Shown: positions 1 to 18,692, counted from the first letter of the stretch. The stretch is DNA of 31,962 nt from Nanobdellota archaeon (GCA_018821425.1 JAHJMH010000019.1:1-31962), one strand, 5' to 3'. Program-made: numbers and translations. Notes: generated from the sequence alone by a model not told the origin.

Positions 1-42
1 GAGATTGAAGAAATAAAAAGCCAGTTGAATGTATCAAAATAA
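1..42 (+). CDS. 3' end of a gene entering from the left (EIEEIKSQLNVSK*), probably a peptidase S74 / intramolecular chaperone domain protein
   Basis: Frame-1 read ends with TAA at 40-42. It is identical to 1010-1051, whose upstream part encodes the S74-like GLDYGALTPILVEGIKEL plus a coiled coil. Confidence 0.5.
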   Translation, partial: EIEEIKSQLNVSK

Positions 43-99
43 AACAGGGGAGACGACGTGGAGTAAAGAGGGAGAATAAAACCGGAAGGGGGACGCTCG
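1..99 (+). repeat. Direct repeat copy 1 (truncated by the window edge)
   Basis: 99/99 identical to 1010-1108 by direct comparison. Confidence 0.95.
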
Positions 100-104
100 C
101 TTCA

Positions 105-509
105 CTAACTCAATTTTCTGATTAATTCTAAAGTATTATAGATTTTTATTTTACTCTGATTTTTTAATTTTTTATCTTGAGTCCAAATCGGACAATTGAA
201 TTTTAATGCAGCAGCAAAATAATGAATATCATCTGAATCTGGAGAAATCTTTTCTGCCTCTTTAACAAATTTTCTTAGTTCCGGCAAAGGAATTATTTCT
301 ATCTTGCTCCTTAAAATAAACATAAATTTTTGAAAGTCTGATTCTGACCTGTGAGTTTTTTTTAAAATTTCTCTTTCATGTTCCTCAAATTCTGCTAATA
401 CAAATTCAGGGGTTATTAATTCAAATTTGTCTGACGTTATTAACTCTGCAGTTCCGGAATCTTTTATCAATGCTGAGAACAAAACATTAGCATCTACAAC
501 CAACAACAT
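105..509 (-). CDS. PIN-domain (VapC-like) toxin
   Basis: N-terminal VVDANV, central E, and DxDDxxxxAAA..WTQD acidic PIN motifs; 134 aa. Confidence 0.9.
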   Translation of the reverse strand: MLLVVDANVLFSALIKDSGTAELITSDKFELITPEFVLAEFEEHEREILKKTHRSESDFQKFMFILRSKIEIIPLPELRKFVKEAEKISPDSDDIHYFAAALKFNCPIWTQDKKLKNQSKIKIYNTLELIRKLS

Positions 510-731
510 TTACATCTCCTTATACTTTTCAACTACCTTTTTGTTGACTCTTTTTCCAAATTCCAATGCATCTTTCTCTGCAAATTCACTTTCTAAACTA
601 AAATTTTTCAAGAACTCTAATTCCTGAATTTTTTTGAGCACTGCTACTCTGGCAACTCGAGACCAATCTATGTTATTATTTTTCTCAATTATTATTCTTA
701 TTTCTTCTGGGATGTTTACTCTCAATTCCAT
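510..731 (-). CDS. Cognate VapB-like antitoxin
   Basis: 73 aa, directly upstream of and abutting the PIN gene; RHH-like N-terminus (RVNIPEE...DWSRVARVAV). Confidence 0.75.
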   Translation of the reverse strand: MELRVNIPEEIRIIIEKNNNIDWSRVARVAVLKKIQELEFLKNFSLESEFAEKDALEFGKRVNKKVVEKYKEM

Positions 732-770
732 AAATTTTATCGGAAGTGATTCTATTTAAAACTTATGTTA

Positions 771-1051
771 ATAAGCCAAGTAAATCGTTCCAGAGATTGT
801 TGAGTTTGGGGACAAAAATAATCCTTCAAATTGGTATTTGATAATATTACAGGAGAAAAAAACTCTACGCAACGGGACTTGACTACGGTGCTTTGACGCC
901 GATTCTTGTTGAAGGTATTAAAGAATTAAAATCTGAAAAGGACGCAGAGATAAAATCTTTGAAGAAAGAAAACGCGAACTTGCAGAATCAAATTAATGAA
1001 TTGAAAGCGGAGATTGAAGAAATAAAAAGCCAGTTGAATGTATCAAAATAA
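771..1051 (+). pseudogene. Frameshifted remnant of the 3' end of an S74-chaperone-domain gene
   Basis: With two single-base corrections (about 839 and about 860) it reads IVPEIVEFGDKNNPSNWY-DNITGEK-LYATGLDYGALTPILVEGIKELKSEKDAEIKSLKKENANLQNQINELKAEIEEIKSQLNVSK*. No start codon. Confidence 0.7.
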
Positions 1052-1108
1052 AACAGGGGAGACGACGTGGAGTAAAGAGGGAGAATAAAACCGGAAGGGG
1101 GACGCTCG
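1010..1108 (+). repeat. Direct repeat copy 2
   Basis: Identical to 1-99. Confidence 0.95.
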
Positions 1109-1162
1109 TTTTGCTCGCGTGATGTTGAATAATTATGCGGCGCCTCGTTGCGCTCGGCGCCG
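1101..1162. repeat. GC-rich REP-like palindromic elements
   Basis: gacgctcgttttgctcgcg and the hairpin cggcgcc-tcgttgcgctc-ggcgccg. 1142-1157 matches 27263-27278 at 14/16. Confidence 0.5.
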
Positions 1163-1321
1163 AGAAAGATTCATTAATATGCGAGCTAATTGTTTTTTGA
1201 GAATGGTTCGTGCGAAATTTATGACGGCACGCGATTTGGTTTGATTAGCAAGTCAAGTCTTATTGCCAAGGTGCATATGGAAAAGAATTAAGTTTATTAA
1301 TAATTATTTTGTTATGTTAAA

Positions 1322-2329
1322 ATGATTGGGAAAACAAAAAAAGAGTTTGGATTAGTTTTGATTTTCTTGACCGTGGGCATTTTTGTTCTTCATTTTGGGA
1401 GTGCAGATATAATTTCTCTTAATGCTGGGGGTAATAACGAAGTAATCGTTTCGGTTGATAAATTCGTGGACGGATTTTTCTTTGGAATCCCATCTCCCGC
1501 TGCTGCTGCTGCTGCGGCAACTCCTGCCACGGGAGGAACTACTGGAGGAACTACTAGCACAACAACGACAACTTCTATTTCGTTGAATCCCTCGTCACTG
1601 GATATAAGTATGGGCGTGGACACTGTTCAGAGAAAGACTATAAGCGTTACAAATCTCGGGAGCTCTTCGGTAACGGTTTCTGTAAGTCAGACTGACCTTG
1701 ATGATTTAATTGCTCTTGGAAGTACGAGTCTCACTATCCCTGCTGGAGAAACTGCGAACCTGAATGTTACTTTCGCAGCGCCGAGCGATTCGGGGTCATA
1801 CAACGGAAAAATAATAATTGGCGGAAAGGAAGTTCTGGTCACACTGAATGTTTATGAGGGTTCCCTTCTTTTTGATTCTAACATAGTTGTTCTTAACAGA
1901 GATTATACTGCTTTCCAGGGAGATAAATTAGAGACTCTTGTGACTTTGATTCCTGTGGGAGAGCCGACGAGAATTGACATTACTCTGAACTATAAAATAA
2001 TTGATTACTCAAATAAAATTTTCTTTACAAAGTCTGAGACTCTTTTCGTTGGAGATGTGACTGAACTTGAGAGGAACTTTGATACGGGAGCTCTTCCCCC
2101 CGGAAGTTACATCTTGAGCCTTGAGCTTATTTATCCTGGAGGTGTTGCACCTTCGAGCGCGCACTTTATTATTGCTGGAAGAGAAATTCCTGCTATCCTT
2201 GGTAAGTTGGTGATATTCCTCCTTGTGCTCATTATCTTAGTAATAATTGCTATACTCTCCATAGTCGTTGTGAGAAGATTCAGAAACCGAGAATCGGATG
2301 CACAGGTTTTGGGTCCAGGTACATTTTAA
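1322..2329 (+). CDS. Secreted/membrane-anchored surface protein with an Ala/Thr/Gly linker and Ig-like beta domains
   Basis: N-terminal hydrophobic signal, AAAAAAATPATGGTTGGTTSTTTTT linker, beta-rich middle, C-terminal TM followed by RRFRNR. Confidence 0.75.
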   Translation: MIGKTKKEFGLVLIFLTVGIFVLHFGSADIISLNAGGNNEVIVSVDKFVDGFFFGIPSPAAAAAAATPATGGTTGGTTSTTTTTSISLNPSSLDISMGVDTVQRKTISVTNLGSSSVTVSVSQTDLDDLIALGSTSLTIPAGETANLNVTFAAPSDSGSYNGKIIIGGKEVLVTLNVYEGSLLFDSNIVVLNRDYTAFQGDKLETLVTLIPVGEPTRIDITLNYKIIDYSNKIFFTKSETLFVGDVTELERNFDTGALPPGSYILSLELIYPGGVAPSSAHFIIAGREIPAILGKLVIFLLVLIILVIIAILSIVVVRRFRNRESDAQVLGPGTF

Positions 2330-2376: not shown

Positions 2377-3567
2377 ATGTTAATAGGACTCGTTGGAAAA
2401 CCGTCGGCAGGAAAGAGCACTTTTTTCAAAGCTGCGACTCTCGCAGAGGTGGCAATAGCGGCTTATCCTTTTACGACGATAAAACCTAACACAGGAGTAG
2501 GTTATGTGAAAGTTGAATGCATTGATAAAGAGTTTAATACTAAGTGCAACCCGAGTCACGGTTTTTGCGTCGATGGAAAAAGATTTGTTCCCGTTGAAAT
2601 AATGGACGTTGCAGGTTTGGTCCCGGGGGCGAGCGAGGGTAAGGGTCTTGGGAATCAGTTCCTTGACGATTTGCGACAGGCTGATGCTTTCATTCAAGTC
2701 GTGGATTGTTCGGGAAGGTCGAATGAAAAAGGAGAACAATTGCCCGAAGGGAAAACGAGGGATCCTGCAGATGACATAAAATTTCTGGAAGAAGAGCTTA
2801 ATCTTTGGTTTTACAACTTGTTGATGAAAGTCTGGAAAAGCTTTTCAAAAAAGACTGAAATGGAGAGGGGGAAATTTTCAGAAGCTGTCGCGAAGCAGTT
2901 TTCTGGTTTGAGAGTTAAGGAGGAATATGTTAAAGACGTTTTGAGAAATTTGAATCTGAGTGAAAAGCCGAGCGAGTGGAGTGAAAAACAATTAAGGAAT
3001 TTTGCTGAAGGTCTTCGGAGAAAGAGTAAGCCGATGATTATTGCTGCCAATAAAATAGATTTGCCTGGGGCTATAGATAATTATCGAAAACTGAGAGCAG
3101 ACTTTCCAAATTTGAATATTGTTCCGTGTTCTGCGGATTCCGAGTTAGCGTTGAGAGAAGCGTCGAAGGCAGGGCTTATAGAATATATTCCCGGAGAAAA
3201 AGATTTCAAAATTATCGGAGAATTGAACGAAAAGCAAAAAGATGCGTTGGAGAAAATTCGTGAAAAGTTTAAAGATTTCGTTGGAGGAACTGGAGTTCAG
3301 TCAATTTTAAACAATGCAGTCTTTGGACTTCTCAGTTATATTCCAATTTTTCCGGCGAGTGCAAACAAGCTCGCGGATAGTAAGGGGAACATTTTGCCAG
3401 ACTGTTTTCTTTTGCCTCCTGGCTCGACGGCGTTGGATTTTGCGTACTTTTTGCACACGGATTTCGGGGAGAATTTTATTAAAGCAATAGACGCACGCAC
3501 GAAGAAAGCCCTCGGGAAAAATTACGAGTTGAAGCCAAGAGATGCTTTAGAAATTGTGACGCGGTGA
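2377..3567 (+). CDS. ychF: Obg-family ATPase YchF (archaeal type)
   Basis: GKPSAGKST, YPFTTIKPN, DVAGLVPGASEGKGLGNQFL, ANKID, C-terminal TGS domain. Confidence 0.95.
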   Translation: MLIGLVGKPSAGKSTFFKAATLAEVAIAAYPFTTIKPNTGVGYVKVECIDKEFNTKCNPSHGFCVDGKRFVPVEIMDVAGLVPGASEGKGLGNQFLDDLRQADAFIQVVDCSGRSNEKGEQLPEGKTRDPADDIKFLEEELNLWFYNLLMKVWKSFSKKTEMERGKFSEAVAKQFSGLRVKEEYVKDVLRNLNLSEKPSEWSEKQLRNFAEGLRRKSKPMIIAANKIDLPGAIDNYRKLRADFPNLNIVPCSADSELALREASKAGLIEYIPGEKDFKIIGELNEKQKDALEKIREKFKDFVGGTGVQSILNNAVFGLLSYIPIFPASANKLADSKGNILPDCFLLPPGSTALDFAYFLHTDFGENFIKAIDARTKKALGKNYELKPRDALEIVTR

Positions 3568-3627
3568 TTTCTTCATCATTGAGTAATGATATTTCTTTTT
3601 ATAGGCTATCAAACTTTATTTATTTTA

Positions 3628-6918: not shown

Positions 6919-8135
6919 CAACAATATTGGGAATTGAATCGACGGCGCACACTTTTGGGATTGGTGTCGTTCGCGACGGGAAAGTTTTATCTAATGTTAA
7001 AAGTTCTTACACTACAGAATCGGGAGGAATAATTCCGATGGATGCGGCGAAGCATCATAAGGAAGTCGGTGTGGAAGTTTATGCTGAATCTTTGGAGAAA
7101 GCAGGAATCAGCGAAGGGGAGATTGATGCAATTGCTTTTTCTCAAGGTCCTGGTTTGGCGCCTTGTTTAATTCAAGGAATTAATTTCGCGAAAGAACTTT
7201 CTAAGAAATTTGAGAAGCCACTTGTTCCAGTTAATCACTGCATCGCGCATCTTGAGATTGGGAGAACTACTGGTGCAAAAAATCCCGTAATGCTTTACGC
7301 CTCGGGAGCGAACACACAAGTTATTGCTTATGCGTCGGGGAAGTTCAGAGTTTTCGGTGAGACTCTTGATATTGGTGTTGGGAATTTTATCGACAACTTC
7401 GCAAGGCACGTGGGTATTGGTTTTCCGGGAGGGCCAGAAATTGAAAAACTTGCCAAGCAAGGGAAGAATTTTATCGAACTTCCTTATAGCGTTAAAGGGA
7501 TGGATATTTCTTTGTCCGGAATTTTAACAAATTTGAAACAGAAGTTTGATAAGATTAAGAATTTGCGTTCGCCTTCGGCTCACTCTGAGGGGCACCAGGT
7601 TTCCCCCTACACTACCCCCTCCTTTAATTTGCGTTCGCCTTCGGCTCACGGAATTAATGGCTTCGAAACCGCCTTCGGACAGGTTTCTCCGCAAGGGAAA
7701 AATATTAAGCAGAAATCTTCTTCGAAGGTTAATCTTCTTCTGAAAAAATCCGAGTGCAGCGACGGCAAAATTGTAAATTACACTCTCGCAGATCTCTCTT
7801 ATTCGCTTCAAGAAACTGTTTTTGCGATGCTTGTTGAAACTGCCGAGCGCGCGTTGGCTCATACTGGGAAGGAAGAGCTTTTACTCGGCGGTGGAGTTGC
7901 GTGCAATTCTCGTTTGCAGGAAATGTGTCGTATCATGTGCAAGGAGCGAGGCGCGAAATTCTTTTGTCCCGAACGTTCGTTGTTAGTGGATAACGCGGCG
8001 ATGATTGCTTTTCTCGGAGAGATAATTTTTAAGATGCGGCGTAATGGACGTGCTCGCCCGCCCGCCCAAGACTTGGCAGATTTAGATATCAAGCCGAGGC
8101 AGAGGACTGATGATGTGGAGGTTGATTGGCGGTGA
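6915..8135 (+). CDS. kae1: tRNA t6A threonylcarbamoyltransferase Kae1/TsaD with an internal insertion of about 60-70 aa
   Basis: ILGIESTAH, VNHCIAHLE, SGANTQ, GETLDIGVGN..D, GGGVACN, DNAAMIA, RTDDV...WR. Confidence 0.95.
   Translation: MTTILGIESTAHTFGIGVVRDGKVLSNVKSSYTTESGGIIPMDAAKHHKEVGVEVYAESLEKAGISEGEIDAIAFSQGPGLAPCLIQGINFAKELSKKFEKPLVPVNHCIAHLEIGRTTGAKNPVMLYASGANTQVIAYASGKFRVFGETLDIGVGNFIDNFARHVGIGFPGGPEIEKLAKQGKNFIELPYSVKGMDISLSGILTNLKQKFDKIKNLRSPSAHSEGHQVSPYTTPSFNLRSPSAHGINGFETAFGQVSPQGKNIKQKSSSKVNLLLKKSECSDGKIVNYTLADLSYSLQETVFAMLVETAERALAHTGKEELLLGGGVACNSRLQEMCRIMCKERGAKFFCPERSLLVDNAAMIAFLGEIIFKMRRNGRARPPAQDLADLDIKPRQRTDDVEVDWR
7560..7700. repeat. REP-like repeat cluster inserted in frame in kae1
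   Basis: 24-bp aatttgcgttcgccttcggctcac at 7560-7583 and 7626-7649 (66-bp period), a third gccttcgga near 7671, and two caggtttc copies. Confidence 0.85.
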
Positions 8136-8177
8136 AAGATTAATAAAATCTATAAATGGTCTTGCCGTAATCATCTT

Positions 8178-8582: not shown

Positions 8583-9022
8583 AAAAAGTTATTGACCGGA
8601 ATAAAATTCTTTCTAAACTGGATGAGATAGGTCTTTATCTTGATGAATTGGAAGAAATAAAACCGGCTGATTTTGAAGAATATAGGAAAAGCATTGTTAA
8701 AAAAAGGTCCTGTGAAAGATTATTACAAATCTCTGTTGAGTCTGTTATTGATATCTGCAATGTTATCGTTGCTAACTTGAGGCTTGGTGTTCCTTATGAT
8801 GAGGATGTTTTGTTTGAAAAATTAATTGATAAGGATATAATATCAAAAAAGACCGGGATGATACTAAGAAAGATGAAAGGATTTAGAAATATTCTTGTCC
8901 ATAAATATGGCGAAGTTGATAATGAGAAAGTTTTTGAACATCTCGGAGAACTGAACGATTTTGAAGTTTTTAAGAATGAGATTTTAAAATTTTTGAATAA
9001 CTCTTCGCGAGGTTGCAATTAA
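8579..9022 (+). CDS. HEPN (DUF86) RNase toxin, HepT-like
   Basis: ERLLQI..E..ID and the RX4HXY motif RNILVHKY. Confidence 0.9.
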   Translation: MKKVIDRNKILSKLDEIGLYLDELEEIKPADFEEYRKSIVKKRSCERLLQISVESVIDICNVIVANLRLGVPYDEDVLFEKLIDKDIISKKTGMILRKMKGFRNILVHKYGEVDNEKVFEHLGELNDFEVFKNEILKFLNNSSRGCN

Positions 9023-9069
9023 AGCTGCGGCAGAGGACTGATGATGTTTATGTGATTTGGAGTCGTTAA
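9003..9069 (+). pseudogene. Diverged duplicate of the kae1 3' end
   Basis: Reads LREVAI/KLRQRTDDVYVIWSR* (one extra base) versus Kae1 LADLDIKPRQRTDDVEVDWR*. 19-bp exact match between 9029-9047 and 8098-8116. Confidence 0.8.
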
Positions 9070-9108
9070 CAAGAAAACTTTATAAACCAATTTTTTCTCA
9101 GTAATACA

Positions 9109-16542: not shown

Positions 16543-17664
16543 TTATTTATTCTCTTGCTTTAGAGCATCTTCGTTTTCATCTTCCTCGTCTTCGGTTTCC
16601 AAAACAAGAATGTTATTTATATCCTCATCTGTAAGTGAAAAGAGTCTTTCTATTATTGCATTAACTATAACTTGTCTATTATCGCTGTCAATAATAAATT
16701 TCCACTCAAATTCAACTTCAGTTAAACCATCCTCAGACTCTATTTTAACTTTTAATTTATCTTTACTTTCAGGAGGCTCATCACTTTCACCAATTTTAAG
16801 CAGACTATTTATCTCTTCCGAACTTAATATTAATTTACTTAAAATTTCAGAAATCACATCATCTGTGTTTGTGATTTCAGTTTCAAACTCTAATTCAACT
16901 TCAATTTCAGAACTCCCATTTAGAGTTTCTACATTTATTTCCAATTCCTCGTCAATCTTAATGTCTCCGAATTTTTCTTCTAGTTCTTCATCATCAGATA
17001 CTATTTCGTCTTCTAAGGTTTCATTACCGACTATTTCATTTTTGTCAGCAATTTTTTCACCAGTTATTATGAATGCCCACCAAGGGGTATTAACATCTAT
17101 GATTTCTCCAGTTTCAGGATCTATTTGTGTTTGCACCTTCATTGAAAGTTTGATTATTCCTAAAAATCGCCCCGGATGTTCTGAGTTAATTTTGTAAACC
17201 ACTCTTGGGATATTTTTGTGCTCTATTTCATCAATTGAAAACTCCGTTATGTTATTTGCTTTTAATCTTTCCATTATTAGAACTCTAAGTTTTTCAGGAG
17301 TAACTCTTATTCTGTGCCTTTCTCCTTCTGAATCTACAATAGAAAGGTTTGCTCCATTACCCTCAACTTTTAATCTTGTTCTTATTTCTGTTTGACCATC
17401 TTTTACTCTTATTTTTCTTTCAGACCTAATTTCTTTTTCAACCTCACCCTCTATTACTCTTATTCTTGTCTCGGCTCTGACTCTTGCCGAATCATCATCA
17501 TCATCATCAGAGTTATCATTTGAGCTTCCCGAATTGTCTGCGGATGCGGCGTTTTCGGAATTGCCTATTCCCGCATTTACCGAATCGGCGAGAACAAATG
17601 AAGAATTAATTAGAATTCCGAATGCTAGAACTAATAACAAAGAAACTATCACAGCCCTTTTCAT
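16543..17664 (-). CDS. Secreted acidic hypothetical protein
   Basis: Signal peptide, Ser/Asp low-complexity stretch, central IDPETGE...PWWAF motif, very acidic C-half. Confidence 0.75.
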   Translation of the reverse strand: MKRAVIVSLLLVLAFGILINSSFVLADSVNAGIGNSENAASADNSGSSNDNSDDDDDDSARVRAETRIRVIEGEVEKEIRSERKIRVKDGQTEIRTRLKVEGNGANLSIVDSEGERHRIRVTPEKLRVLIMERLKANNITEFSIDEIEHKNIPRVVYKINSEHPGRFLGIIKLSMKVQTQIDPETGEIIDVNTPWWAFIITGEKIADKNEIVGNETLEDEIVSDDEELEEKFGDIKIDEELEINVETLNGSSEIEVELEFETEITNTDDVISEILSKLILSSEEINSLLKIGESDEPPESKDKLKVKIESEDGLTEVEFEWKFIIDSDNRQVIVNAIIERLFSLTDEDINNILVLETEDEEDENEDALKQENK

Positions 17665-17683
17665 AAAAGTATTATAGGATTAT

Positions 17684-17845
17684 ATCTTATAAACATTTCT
17701 TTCTCTATCTGAGAATTAAACAACGTCGCCCCAGCCAATTAATCGCCAGTGACCCTCGATGTTTCTCGCTATTCCGACTTATCTTCTTTCAGAATTACTA
17801 CTGGAATGTTTAAGATTACTTCGACTTCGTCACCAGATATTTTTT
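17684..17845 (-). repeat. Direct repeat copy A: duplicated eif2g 3' end (pseudo-fragment 17716-17845) plus downstream promoter
   Basis: Identical to 18530-18692 apart from a 1-bp deletion (cgac-ttatc versus cgaccttatc). Confidence 0.95.
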
Positions 17846-18329: not shown

Positions 18330-18529
18330 ATTTAGAAATCTTATTAGTTTCTTTCACTTGTTATTTGGATTTTGCGTCGGGAAACAATATTAATAAATAA
18401 AATTCTCTGATTAATTCTTGCAGGTTAGAAGCCATTATCTATTTTATTTTTCCATCTGATATATTCTTCCCATAAGATATTGGGTCCAAAGCTCATTTGG
18501 TTTCCTTTTTATCATATTAAAGAAATAAA

Positions 18530-18692
18530 ATCTTATAAACATTTCTTTCTCTATCTGAGAATTAAACAACGTCGCCCCAGCCAATTAATCGCCAGTGACC
18601 CTCGATGTTTCTCGCTATTCCGACCTTATCTTCTTTCAGAATTACTACTGGAATGTTTAAGATTACTTCGACTTCGTCACCAGATATTTTTT
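18530..18692 (-). repeat. Direct repeat copy B (intact eif2g 3' end plus 32 bp downstream)
   Basis: See 17684-17845. Confidence 0.95.

Follow-up and report, generated by a model that had tools for sequence, protein, structure and literature searches.

Organization of the locus and its host

The window, i.e., the whole stretch of DNA that was analysed (31,962 nucleotides), is contig C27 of the Nanobdellota archaeon MAG G000 (GCA_018821425.1, JAHJMH010000019.1), which comprises 613 kb in 84 contigs and is 91% complete. The neighbouring genes in the window are of archaeal type (L24e, S28e, L7Ae, Kae1, and a YGR210-type GTPase), the genome is tiny, and every sequencing run that holds the locus is of groundwater origin, which together point to an ultra-small (DPANN-type) archaeon of groundwater as the host. 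The features of the locus are arranged as follows.

1-31,962, one strand: the window, contig C27 of G000
1-99, plus strand: left copy of the direct repeat, truncated at the start of the contig, exact match to 1010-1108
1-42, plus strand: within the left copy, last 13 codons and stop codon of the S74 fragment
43-99, plus strand: within the left copy, GC-rich downstream element
105-509, minus strand: vapC-like toxin, PIN_2, 134 aa, intact (PF10130)
510-731, minus strand: vapB-like antitoxin, 73 aa, abutting vapC (ORF and PF26688 match)
732-783, minus strand: putative vapB promoter region, as read from the sequence
784-1051, plus strand: start-less C-terminal fragment of Peptidase_S74 type (tail-fibre chaperone), from phmmer homologues
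1010-1108, plus strand: right copy of the exact 99-nt repeat (sequence match)
1052-1175, plus strand: GC-rich conserved element after gene-end fragments, with copies on the array contigs
1190-1291, plus strand: 3' relic of a 207-aa membrane protein gene (tblastn against contig C78 of genome G005)
1322-2329, plus strand: Ig-like membrane protein, chromosomal flank, synteny anchor together with the GTPase
2377-3567: YGR210-type GTPase, after the Ig-like gene

Base 1 of the window is also base 1 of the contig, so the repeat's left edge is set by the assembly and does not mark a biological boundary. The insert between the two copies is 684 nt long and contains only the vapBC pair and its promoter.

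The vapBC pair

The toxin gene matches PIN_2 (PF10130, E = 1e-28, residues 4 to 116, hmmscan), and its acidic motifs VVDAN (D6), PEF, DDIHYFAAAL, and WTQD are kept across 10 array paralogues. vapB lies upstream of vapC with a spacing of 0 nt and is assigned to RHH_12 (PF26688) by a precomputed match; our own hmmscan of vapB gave no match. Relative to the orthologues in G005, a genome of the same genus, vapC is 87% identical at the amino acid level with a pN/pS of 0.14, and vapB has a pN/pS of 0.26; by these values the pair looks to be under purifying selection and functional. The vapC stop codon (105-107) is located 5 nt from the end of the repeat. On the other side, a TTTAAATA box resembling an archaeal TATA box occupies minus-strand positions 760-753, 21 nt upstream of the vapB ATG, and the vapB mRNA is therefore probably leaderless. 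The motif AAAG(A/T)TTTAAATA also precedes other cassettes. When vapB and the ORF of the left repeat copy were looked up, matches were found only in the same two contigs, belonging to assemblies L009 and L010 described below.

The S74 remnant

A TAA at 781-783 precedes the frame of the S74 remnant, which covers 784-1051 on the plus strand and has no start codon; it fits the family consensus once a missing base is put back into each of two homopolymers, the T-run at 837-839 and the A-run at 856-862. A phmmer search with an unbroken sister fragment (P0001, from L011) against 1.8e9 proteins yielded 112 matches. PF13884 (E values of 1e-12 to 1e-15) ends exactly where the fragment match starts in 10 of the 10 long homologues scanned, and the consensus of the full-length homologues reads ...MGFIAEEVG..VPE.V......SNWY.D..GEKKLYATG.DYGALTP.LVEAIKEL. 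The contexts of two full-length homologues, P0003 and P0006, which are found on contigs of ~1.6 kb, are uninformative.

The initial annotation had described the right copy as the start-less C terminus of an S74 chaperone with two single-base deletions in homopolymer runs. The position of PF13884 directly upstream in the long homologues upholds the first part, and comparison with the full-length homologues places the two deletions in the T- and A-runs named above. It had also suggested an HMM search of the corrected peptide against Peptidase_S74, which gave no match: against Pfam, the mended fragment produced no PF13884 match and only coiled-coil noise, because the PF13884 model is confined to the N-terminal half of the domain, and this half is lost from the fragment. 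The fragment begins at the last ~6 positions of the PF13884 model, and the catalytic half of the domain is missing. A PF13884 search of the whole MAG found none. Judged by its homology to the segment that follows PF13884, the remnant is a relic of an S74 gene and no working member of Peptidase_S74.

The direct repeat and the evidence from reads

Bases 1-99 are identical to bases 1010-1108 (102 nt match at 99%), and an exact 99-nt repeat within 32 kb is far beyond chance. Two contigs of the same population, one in L009 (k127, 18.6 kb) and one in L010 (k141), are 99.6 to 99.8% identical to the window over 9 kb and extend to the left of its base 1. The left copy measures at least 383 nt in L009, where it corresponds to window positions 726-1108 at 95.6% identity, and at least 283 nt in L010, with an overall identity of 94 to 96%.

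The L009 left copy starts with the first two vapB codons (ATGGAA) and the same 58-nt vapB promoter. It is start-less and has the same TAA, 5' truncation, and T-run deletion as the right copy; it has A6 instead of A7 in the A-run, which reopens the frame by chance. Since the 5' truncation and the T-run deletion are common to the left copy, the right copy, and a further copy on contig C83 (see below), the three descend from an already broken fragment, which makes the left copy a further relic rather than the terminus of an intact S74 gene. Within bases 1-31, the two copies differ from each other in L009 and L010 but are identical in the window; the perfect identity of these bases in the window reflects either strain-specific conversion or a path choice of the assembler. 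The exact 99-nt identity coincides with a MEGAHIT k step.

The junctions at 99/100 (repeat to vapC) and from the repeat to 1109 are found in two independent assemblies as well as in Logan contigs of four runs, which come from four studies; a scan of JGI metagenome contigs for the exact junction gave no match. Cassette and flank depths in the four runs were 579/553, 38/44.5, 43.8/41, and 5.4/6.7; relative to the flanks, the repeat has a depth of ~1.6 to 2.3× and the A6 allele one of 0.65 to 0.8×. These depths exclude a collapsed single copy. A tandem duplication of the whole 1009-nt unit was ruled out, as the depth of vapBC equals that of the flanks in the four runs. The vapBC unit has single-copy depth in these runs, and neither a circular nor an empty-site form of it was seen.

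Much of what the initial annotation had proposed for this arrangement thus stands: the exact match of 1-99 to 1010-1108, the minus-strand vapBC pair with its toxin stop beside the left repeat and its promoter beside the remnant, the presence of matching sequence upstream of the window (94 to 96% in L009 and L010), and the existence of two copies, which the reads do not collapse into one. Its estimate of ~340 bp for the full repeat was right in that the repeat extends well to the left of the 99 nt, but the repeat is longer (at least 383 nt in L009). Its identification of the left copy as the 3' end of an S74 gene has to be abandoned, given the start-less, truncated L009 copy with its T-run deletion and the promoter in front.

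The cassette array in this species

A third copy of the fragment lies at the end of contig C83 of this MAG. It corresponds to window positions 826-1008 at 91% identity and has both frameshifts of the right copy, and an RHH/PIN_2 pair on the opposite strand comes before it. The end of C83 is one base short of abutting the start of the window, which is suggestive of a C83-window join. PIN_2/RHH, HicAB, DUF433/PIN, and MNT/HEPN pairs are found on C83, C64, and C43, with gene-end fragments and copies of a GC-rich element (see below) between them; the gene-end separators are 3' fragments of three different surface-protein genes. The locus is thus probably the terminal unit of a cassette array, not one insertion into one gene.

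Both of the other fragment kinds are start-less. The second contains ...KTDKPNIKVSWQVTG... and has a fuller copy in another genome (G008, contig C30, L019); the third ends in ...TSTMIKINLG*. These two kinds are located at C83:2743-2940, C64:1487-1759, and C43:1-279 and 1525-1809.

The content of the array varies between strains. A DUF433/PIN cassette together with a gene-end fragment (C83:2712-3553) is missing from L012, a contig of GCA_018828985.1 from the same species, providing a clean comparison of one copy versus two copies. The crossover of this indel lies inside a 29-nt identical stretch of the flanking repeats, which includes a palindrome and a TATA box. Two more cassettes within the window itself share this layout: one shows a gene-end duplication after a toxin-antitoxin pair (17656-17845 versus 18504-18692, a 192-nt repeat at 94%), and the other, an MNT/HEPN pair, is followed by a diverged kae1 end (8090-8150 versus 9020-9070) whose C termini read ...KPRQRTDDVEVDW and ...KLRQRTDDVYVIW.

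No mobility gene was found in or beside any unit. The sole trace of a tyrosine recombinase (PF00589) in this fragmented MAG is a XerA-like C terminus at C73:3-155, cut by the contig start; it is followed by an Hjc-like gene and ordinary genes and lies away from the arrays.

Synteny with related genomes

G005 has array contigs as well (C52, C64, and C78), of which C52 displays the order fragment, vapBC orthologue, fragment, RHH/PIN, fragment, RHH/PIN. The layout of vapBC plus fragments is therefore common to the two genomes and predates the species split. Another G005 contig, C78, carries the syntenic flank, where a RelE-like pair lies between two S74 fragments and is followed by an intact gene of 207 aa (L029 1046-1666). 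The relic at 1190-1291 of the window (...FGLISKSSLIAKVHMEKN*) matches this gene in tblastn with 78% identity over 23 aa, and the rest of the membrane protein gene is deleted from the window.

About 30 genomes of the genus retain the Ig-like gene with the GTPase after it, and most of these have no S74 gene there. In G026, which is too diverged to serve as a base-level empty site, the Ig-like gene is immediately preceded by an S74 gene end that includes the complete PF13884 region, and there is no cassette; G013 probably has the same S74 gene end at this position, also with no cassette. The S74 gene of G031 is not syntenic and was ruled out as a counterpart. In the window, the interval that separates the Ig-like gene from the GTPase (2330-2376) is empty. 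In other species of the genus (L043, L059, L062, L063, and L064), this interval holds AbrB/RelE-like or RHH/MazF-like pairs (MazEF-/RelE-type), and no flanking repeats were detected around them.

Divergence pattern of the fragments

The toxins of the array are only 25 to 50% identical to each other; neighbouring fragments are 65 to 95% alike. Differences between fragments are enriched at synonymous sites, with pN/pS values of 0.25 to 0.45 (binomial P from 0.02 to 2e-7), for which the neutral expectation lies somewhat below 1, since NG86 ignores transition bias and AT-rich codon usage, and to which the within-genome pairs, being short, contribute only 16 to 44 substitutions each. Neutral decay after in situ duplication should give a ratio of ~1, and the observed values argue against such decay. 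The bias is present even between copies that share frameshifts. It implies that most of the divergence arose while the sequences were coding, in functional S74 genes of donors or paralogues; the same dN/dS signal would be expected from fragments of independently truncated paralogues.

The differences are also patchy and vary between MAGs of one species. A patch at 926-973 is present in C83 and absent in L012 and L013, and the L009 left copy has its patches at 856-897 and 992-1031. Patchy, strain-specific differences of this type read as a signature of gene conversion, and the overall pattern fits an origin of the fragments from functional genes with later gene conversion, rather than neutral decay after one insertion.

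A model for the array

Given the observed anatomy, array, strain polymorphism, synteny, and substitution pattern, we consider it reasonably probable (about 0.6) that bases 1-1108 are the last unit of a recombinase-free array of toxin-antitoxin cassettes, located where an S74 tail-fibre-like gene formerly ended. Each unit would consist of a compact toxin-antitoxin pair and the 3' part of a surface-protein gene without its start, which here are the RHH/PIN_2 vapBC pair and the S74 fragment. The fragment copies could act as long direct repeats for host homologous recombination, by which units might be inserted through Campbell-type or unequal exchange, giving the appearance of an insertion with long target duplication. 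Recombination between fragments would also delete units, and gene conversion would overwrite patches of one fragment with another. We infer this recombination mechanism, and with it that a cassette travels together with its fragment.

A broader reading is more tentative. Ultra-small archaea might run an analogue of the integron that needs no recombinase, in which a portable gene-end fragment serves as the homology handle for host recombination, arrays pile up behind a gene and are exchanged between strains and species, and the synonymous-biased differences are the footprint of the donor genomes. We regard this generalization as possible but doubtful.

The GC-rich element and a site-specific alternative

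The gene-end fragment is followed by an element (1052-1175) with a GC content of ~58% in a genome of 37% GC. It contains GCTCG repeats and a 12-nt palindrome, CTCGGCGCCGAG, at 1153-1164, which is succeeded by AAAGATTTAAATAAT and a degenerate BRE/TATA-like tail. The vapBC cassette breaks the left copy of the element after ...GACGCTCG. Copies are found only on the array contigs C27, C64, C83, and C43, at C83:2687-2730 and 3528-3570, C64:4037-4152, and C43:331-386 and ~1860-1930, and across 41 genomes of the genus the element is essentially limited to this species. Rfam gave no match to the element on the array contigs, where it returned a single sub-threshold snoRNA hit.

This element could be a recombinase site, in which case the array would be a site-specific cassette system, integron-like or Xer/dif-module-like, with CTCGGCGCCGAG at the recombination site and the recombinase encoded elsewhere. 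The recurrence of the palindrome and promoter module at cassette junctions, only on array contigs, is in line with such a system, as is the position of the L012/C83 crossover inside 29 nt containing the palindrome; archaeal integrons, including those of Nanoarchaeota, are mostly without IntI and rich in toxin-antitoxin genes (PMC9668308). However, no IntI was found, and the XerA-like C terminus beside housekeeping genes is the only tyrosine-recombinase trace. A heuristic scan detected no RYYYAAC...GTTRRRY core pairs at any junction, and the long hairpin predicted at 1113-1186 fails to reach significance (z = -1.5) and is not conserved among other copies of the element. Moreover, the vapBC junctions of the window (99/100 and ~783/784) do not coincide with the palindrome, and G005 has arrays that lack the element. 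We therefore consider a site-specific system unlikely.

Other alternative explanations

If vapBC had inserted once, at the 3' end of a then intact S74 gene, and had duplicated a target of ~340 bp by a staggered cut and fill-in, the left copy would still end the live gene and the right copy would have decayed. Direct repeats do flank a filler-free cassette, a relative (G026) has the S74 gene end at this site with no cassette, and the layout matches that of restriction-modification units with long target duplications, which have repeats of 46 to 423 bp and no mobility genes (PMC2853133). What makes this history improbable is the L009 left copy, which is itself start-less with the same truncation and T-run deletion and has the vapB promoter and ATGGAA in front of it. 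The absence of PF13884 from the MAG, the tandem occurrence of several units, the synonymous bias of the differences between copies, and a layout that is shared with G005 and older than the species split all stand against it as well.

The S74 C-terminal fragments might instead be real small genes, for instance a third partner in the cassette, with the frame kept by selection. At least five copies in G005 are open over 57 to 105 codons despite 20 to 30% protein divergence and with pN/pS values of 0.25 to 0.45, and many short ORFs of this kind occur in metagenomes. In this species, however, all three copies examined (the right copy, the C83 copy, and the L009 left copy) are frameshifted at the same place; several copies have no start codon and have different 5' ends, and the fragment is devoid of the catalytic half of the domain. 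The S74 fragments in G000 are non-coding relics, and we hold a coding role for the fragments to be quite improbable.

That the repeat is an assembly artefact, whether from contig ends overlapping by a k-mer or from a chimeric join, might be suspected from its position at the contig start, the agreement of 99 with a MEGAHIT k step, the many 141-nt contig-end overlaps, and the complete identity of the copies in the window against their differences within 1-31 in L009 and L010, yet it is highly improbable in view of the repeat-vapC junction in four runs of four studies and two other assemblies and of the excess depth of the repeat (~1.6 to 2.3×), and at most the perfect identity of bases 1-31 would be a matter of strain-specific conversion or graph path choice.

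Relation to known systems

Insertion with long target duplication was reportedly described by Nobusato et al. in 2000 for restriction-modification gene units. In the survey of Furuta et al. (2010, PMC2853133), restriction-modification units of this type have direct repeats of 46 to 423 bp and no mobility genes; the authors proposed that such units cycle through insertion, amplification by way of the repeats, and release, and no archaeal case was kept after their screen (PMC2853133). By the measures of that survey, our locus has direct repeats longer than 30 bp (99 bp exact, at least 383 bp at 95.6% identity in L009), an insert of 684 nt, which is below 20 kb, and no mobility gene. Like those units, it is a selfish "addiction" unit with long direct repeats and neither transposase nor integrase, and its repeat lengths (99 to at least 383 bp) compare with the 46 to 423 bp of the restriction-modification units. 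The repeats of those units correspond to one copy in a genome free of the insert; here, the nearest counterparts are the S74 gene end of the diverged G026 and, for the neighbouring DUF433/PIN cassette, the one copy in L012 against two in C83. In contrast to the restriction-modification units, the cargo is a type II toxin-antitoxin pair in an archaeon, and units are lined up in arrays. The repeats consist of gene-end fragments with mainly synonymous differences, not of simple copies of a resident target, and both copies that flank vapBC are broken.

Integrons and CALINs, those of archaea included, consist of cassette arrays rich in toxin-antitoxin genes (Ghaly et al., 2022, PMC9668308). The arrays described here are similar in their rows of small toxin-antitoxin-rich cassettes, often promoter-poor or self-promoted, in their strain-variable content, and in a conserved element at the junctions. 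They differ in having no IntI, attC core sites, or conserved attC fold, and in their junction repeats, which are remnants of coding sequence and span hundreds of bases; the orientation of the cassettes is mixed.

In E. coli, the elements e14 and phage 21 insert at icd, a protein gene for which they bring a replacement 3' end; each encodes an integrase, and integration happens once. The locus resembles them in the displaced, start-less 3' end of a gene that lies beyond the inserted DNA and differs mostly at synonymous sites from the resident end. Unlike e14 and phage 21, it has no integrase, and its units of ~1 kb are arranged in tandem.

Toxin-antitoxin pairs are among the most mobile genes of prokaryotes, and most of them have no visible means of moving. 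For one lineage, the locus offers a concrete and testable picture of how they may do so: cassettes behind copies of gene ends, with strain-variable content and no recombinase, in which the substitution pattern speaks for functional genes, rather than local duplication, as the source of the gene-end copies. Should this arrangement be general, it would account for the way in which reduced genomes with nearly no mobile-element machinery gather and shuffle many toxin-antitoxin modules, and it would extend the idea of long target duplication from bacterial restriction-modification genes to archaeal toxin-antitoxin arrays. Such arrays break assemblies, with at least four contigs ending in them here, and are therefore under-reported in MAGs. 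Many contig ends of G000 (for example, those of C2, C5, C22, C45, C49, C51, C58, C61, and C72) share exact overlaps of 141 nt, which are the graph signature of MEGAHIT at k = 141, and several contigs of this MAG can probably be joined.
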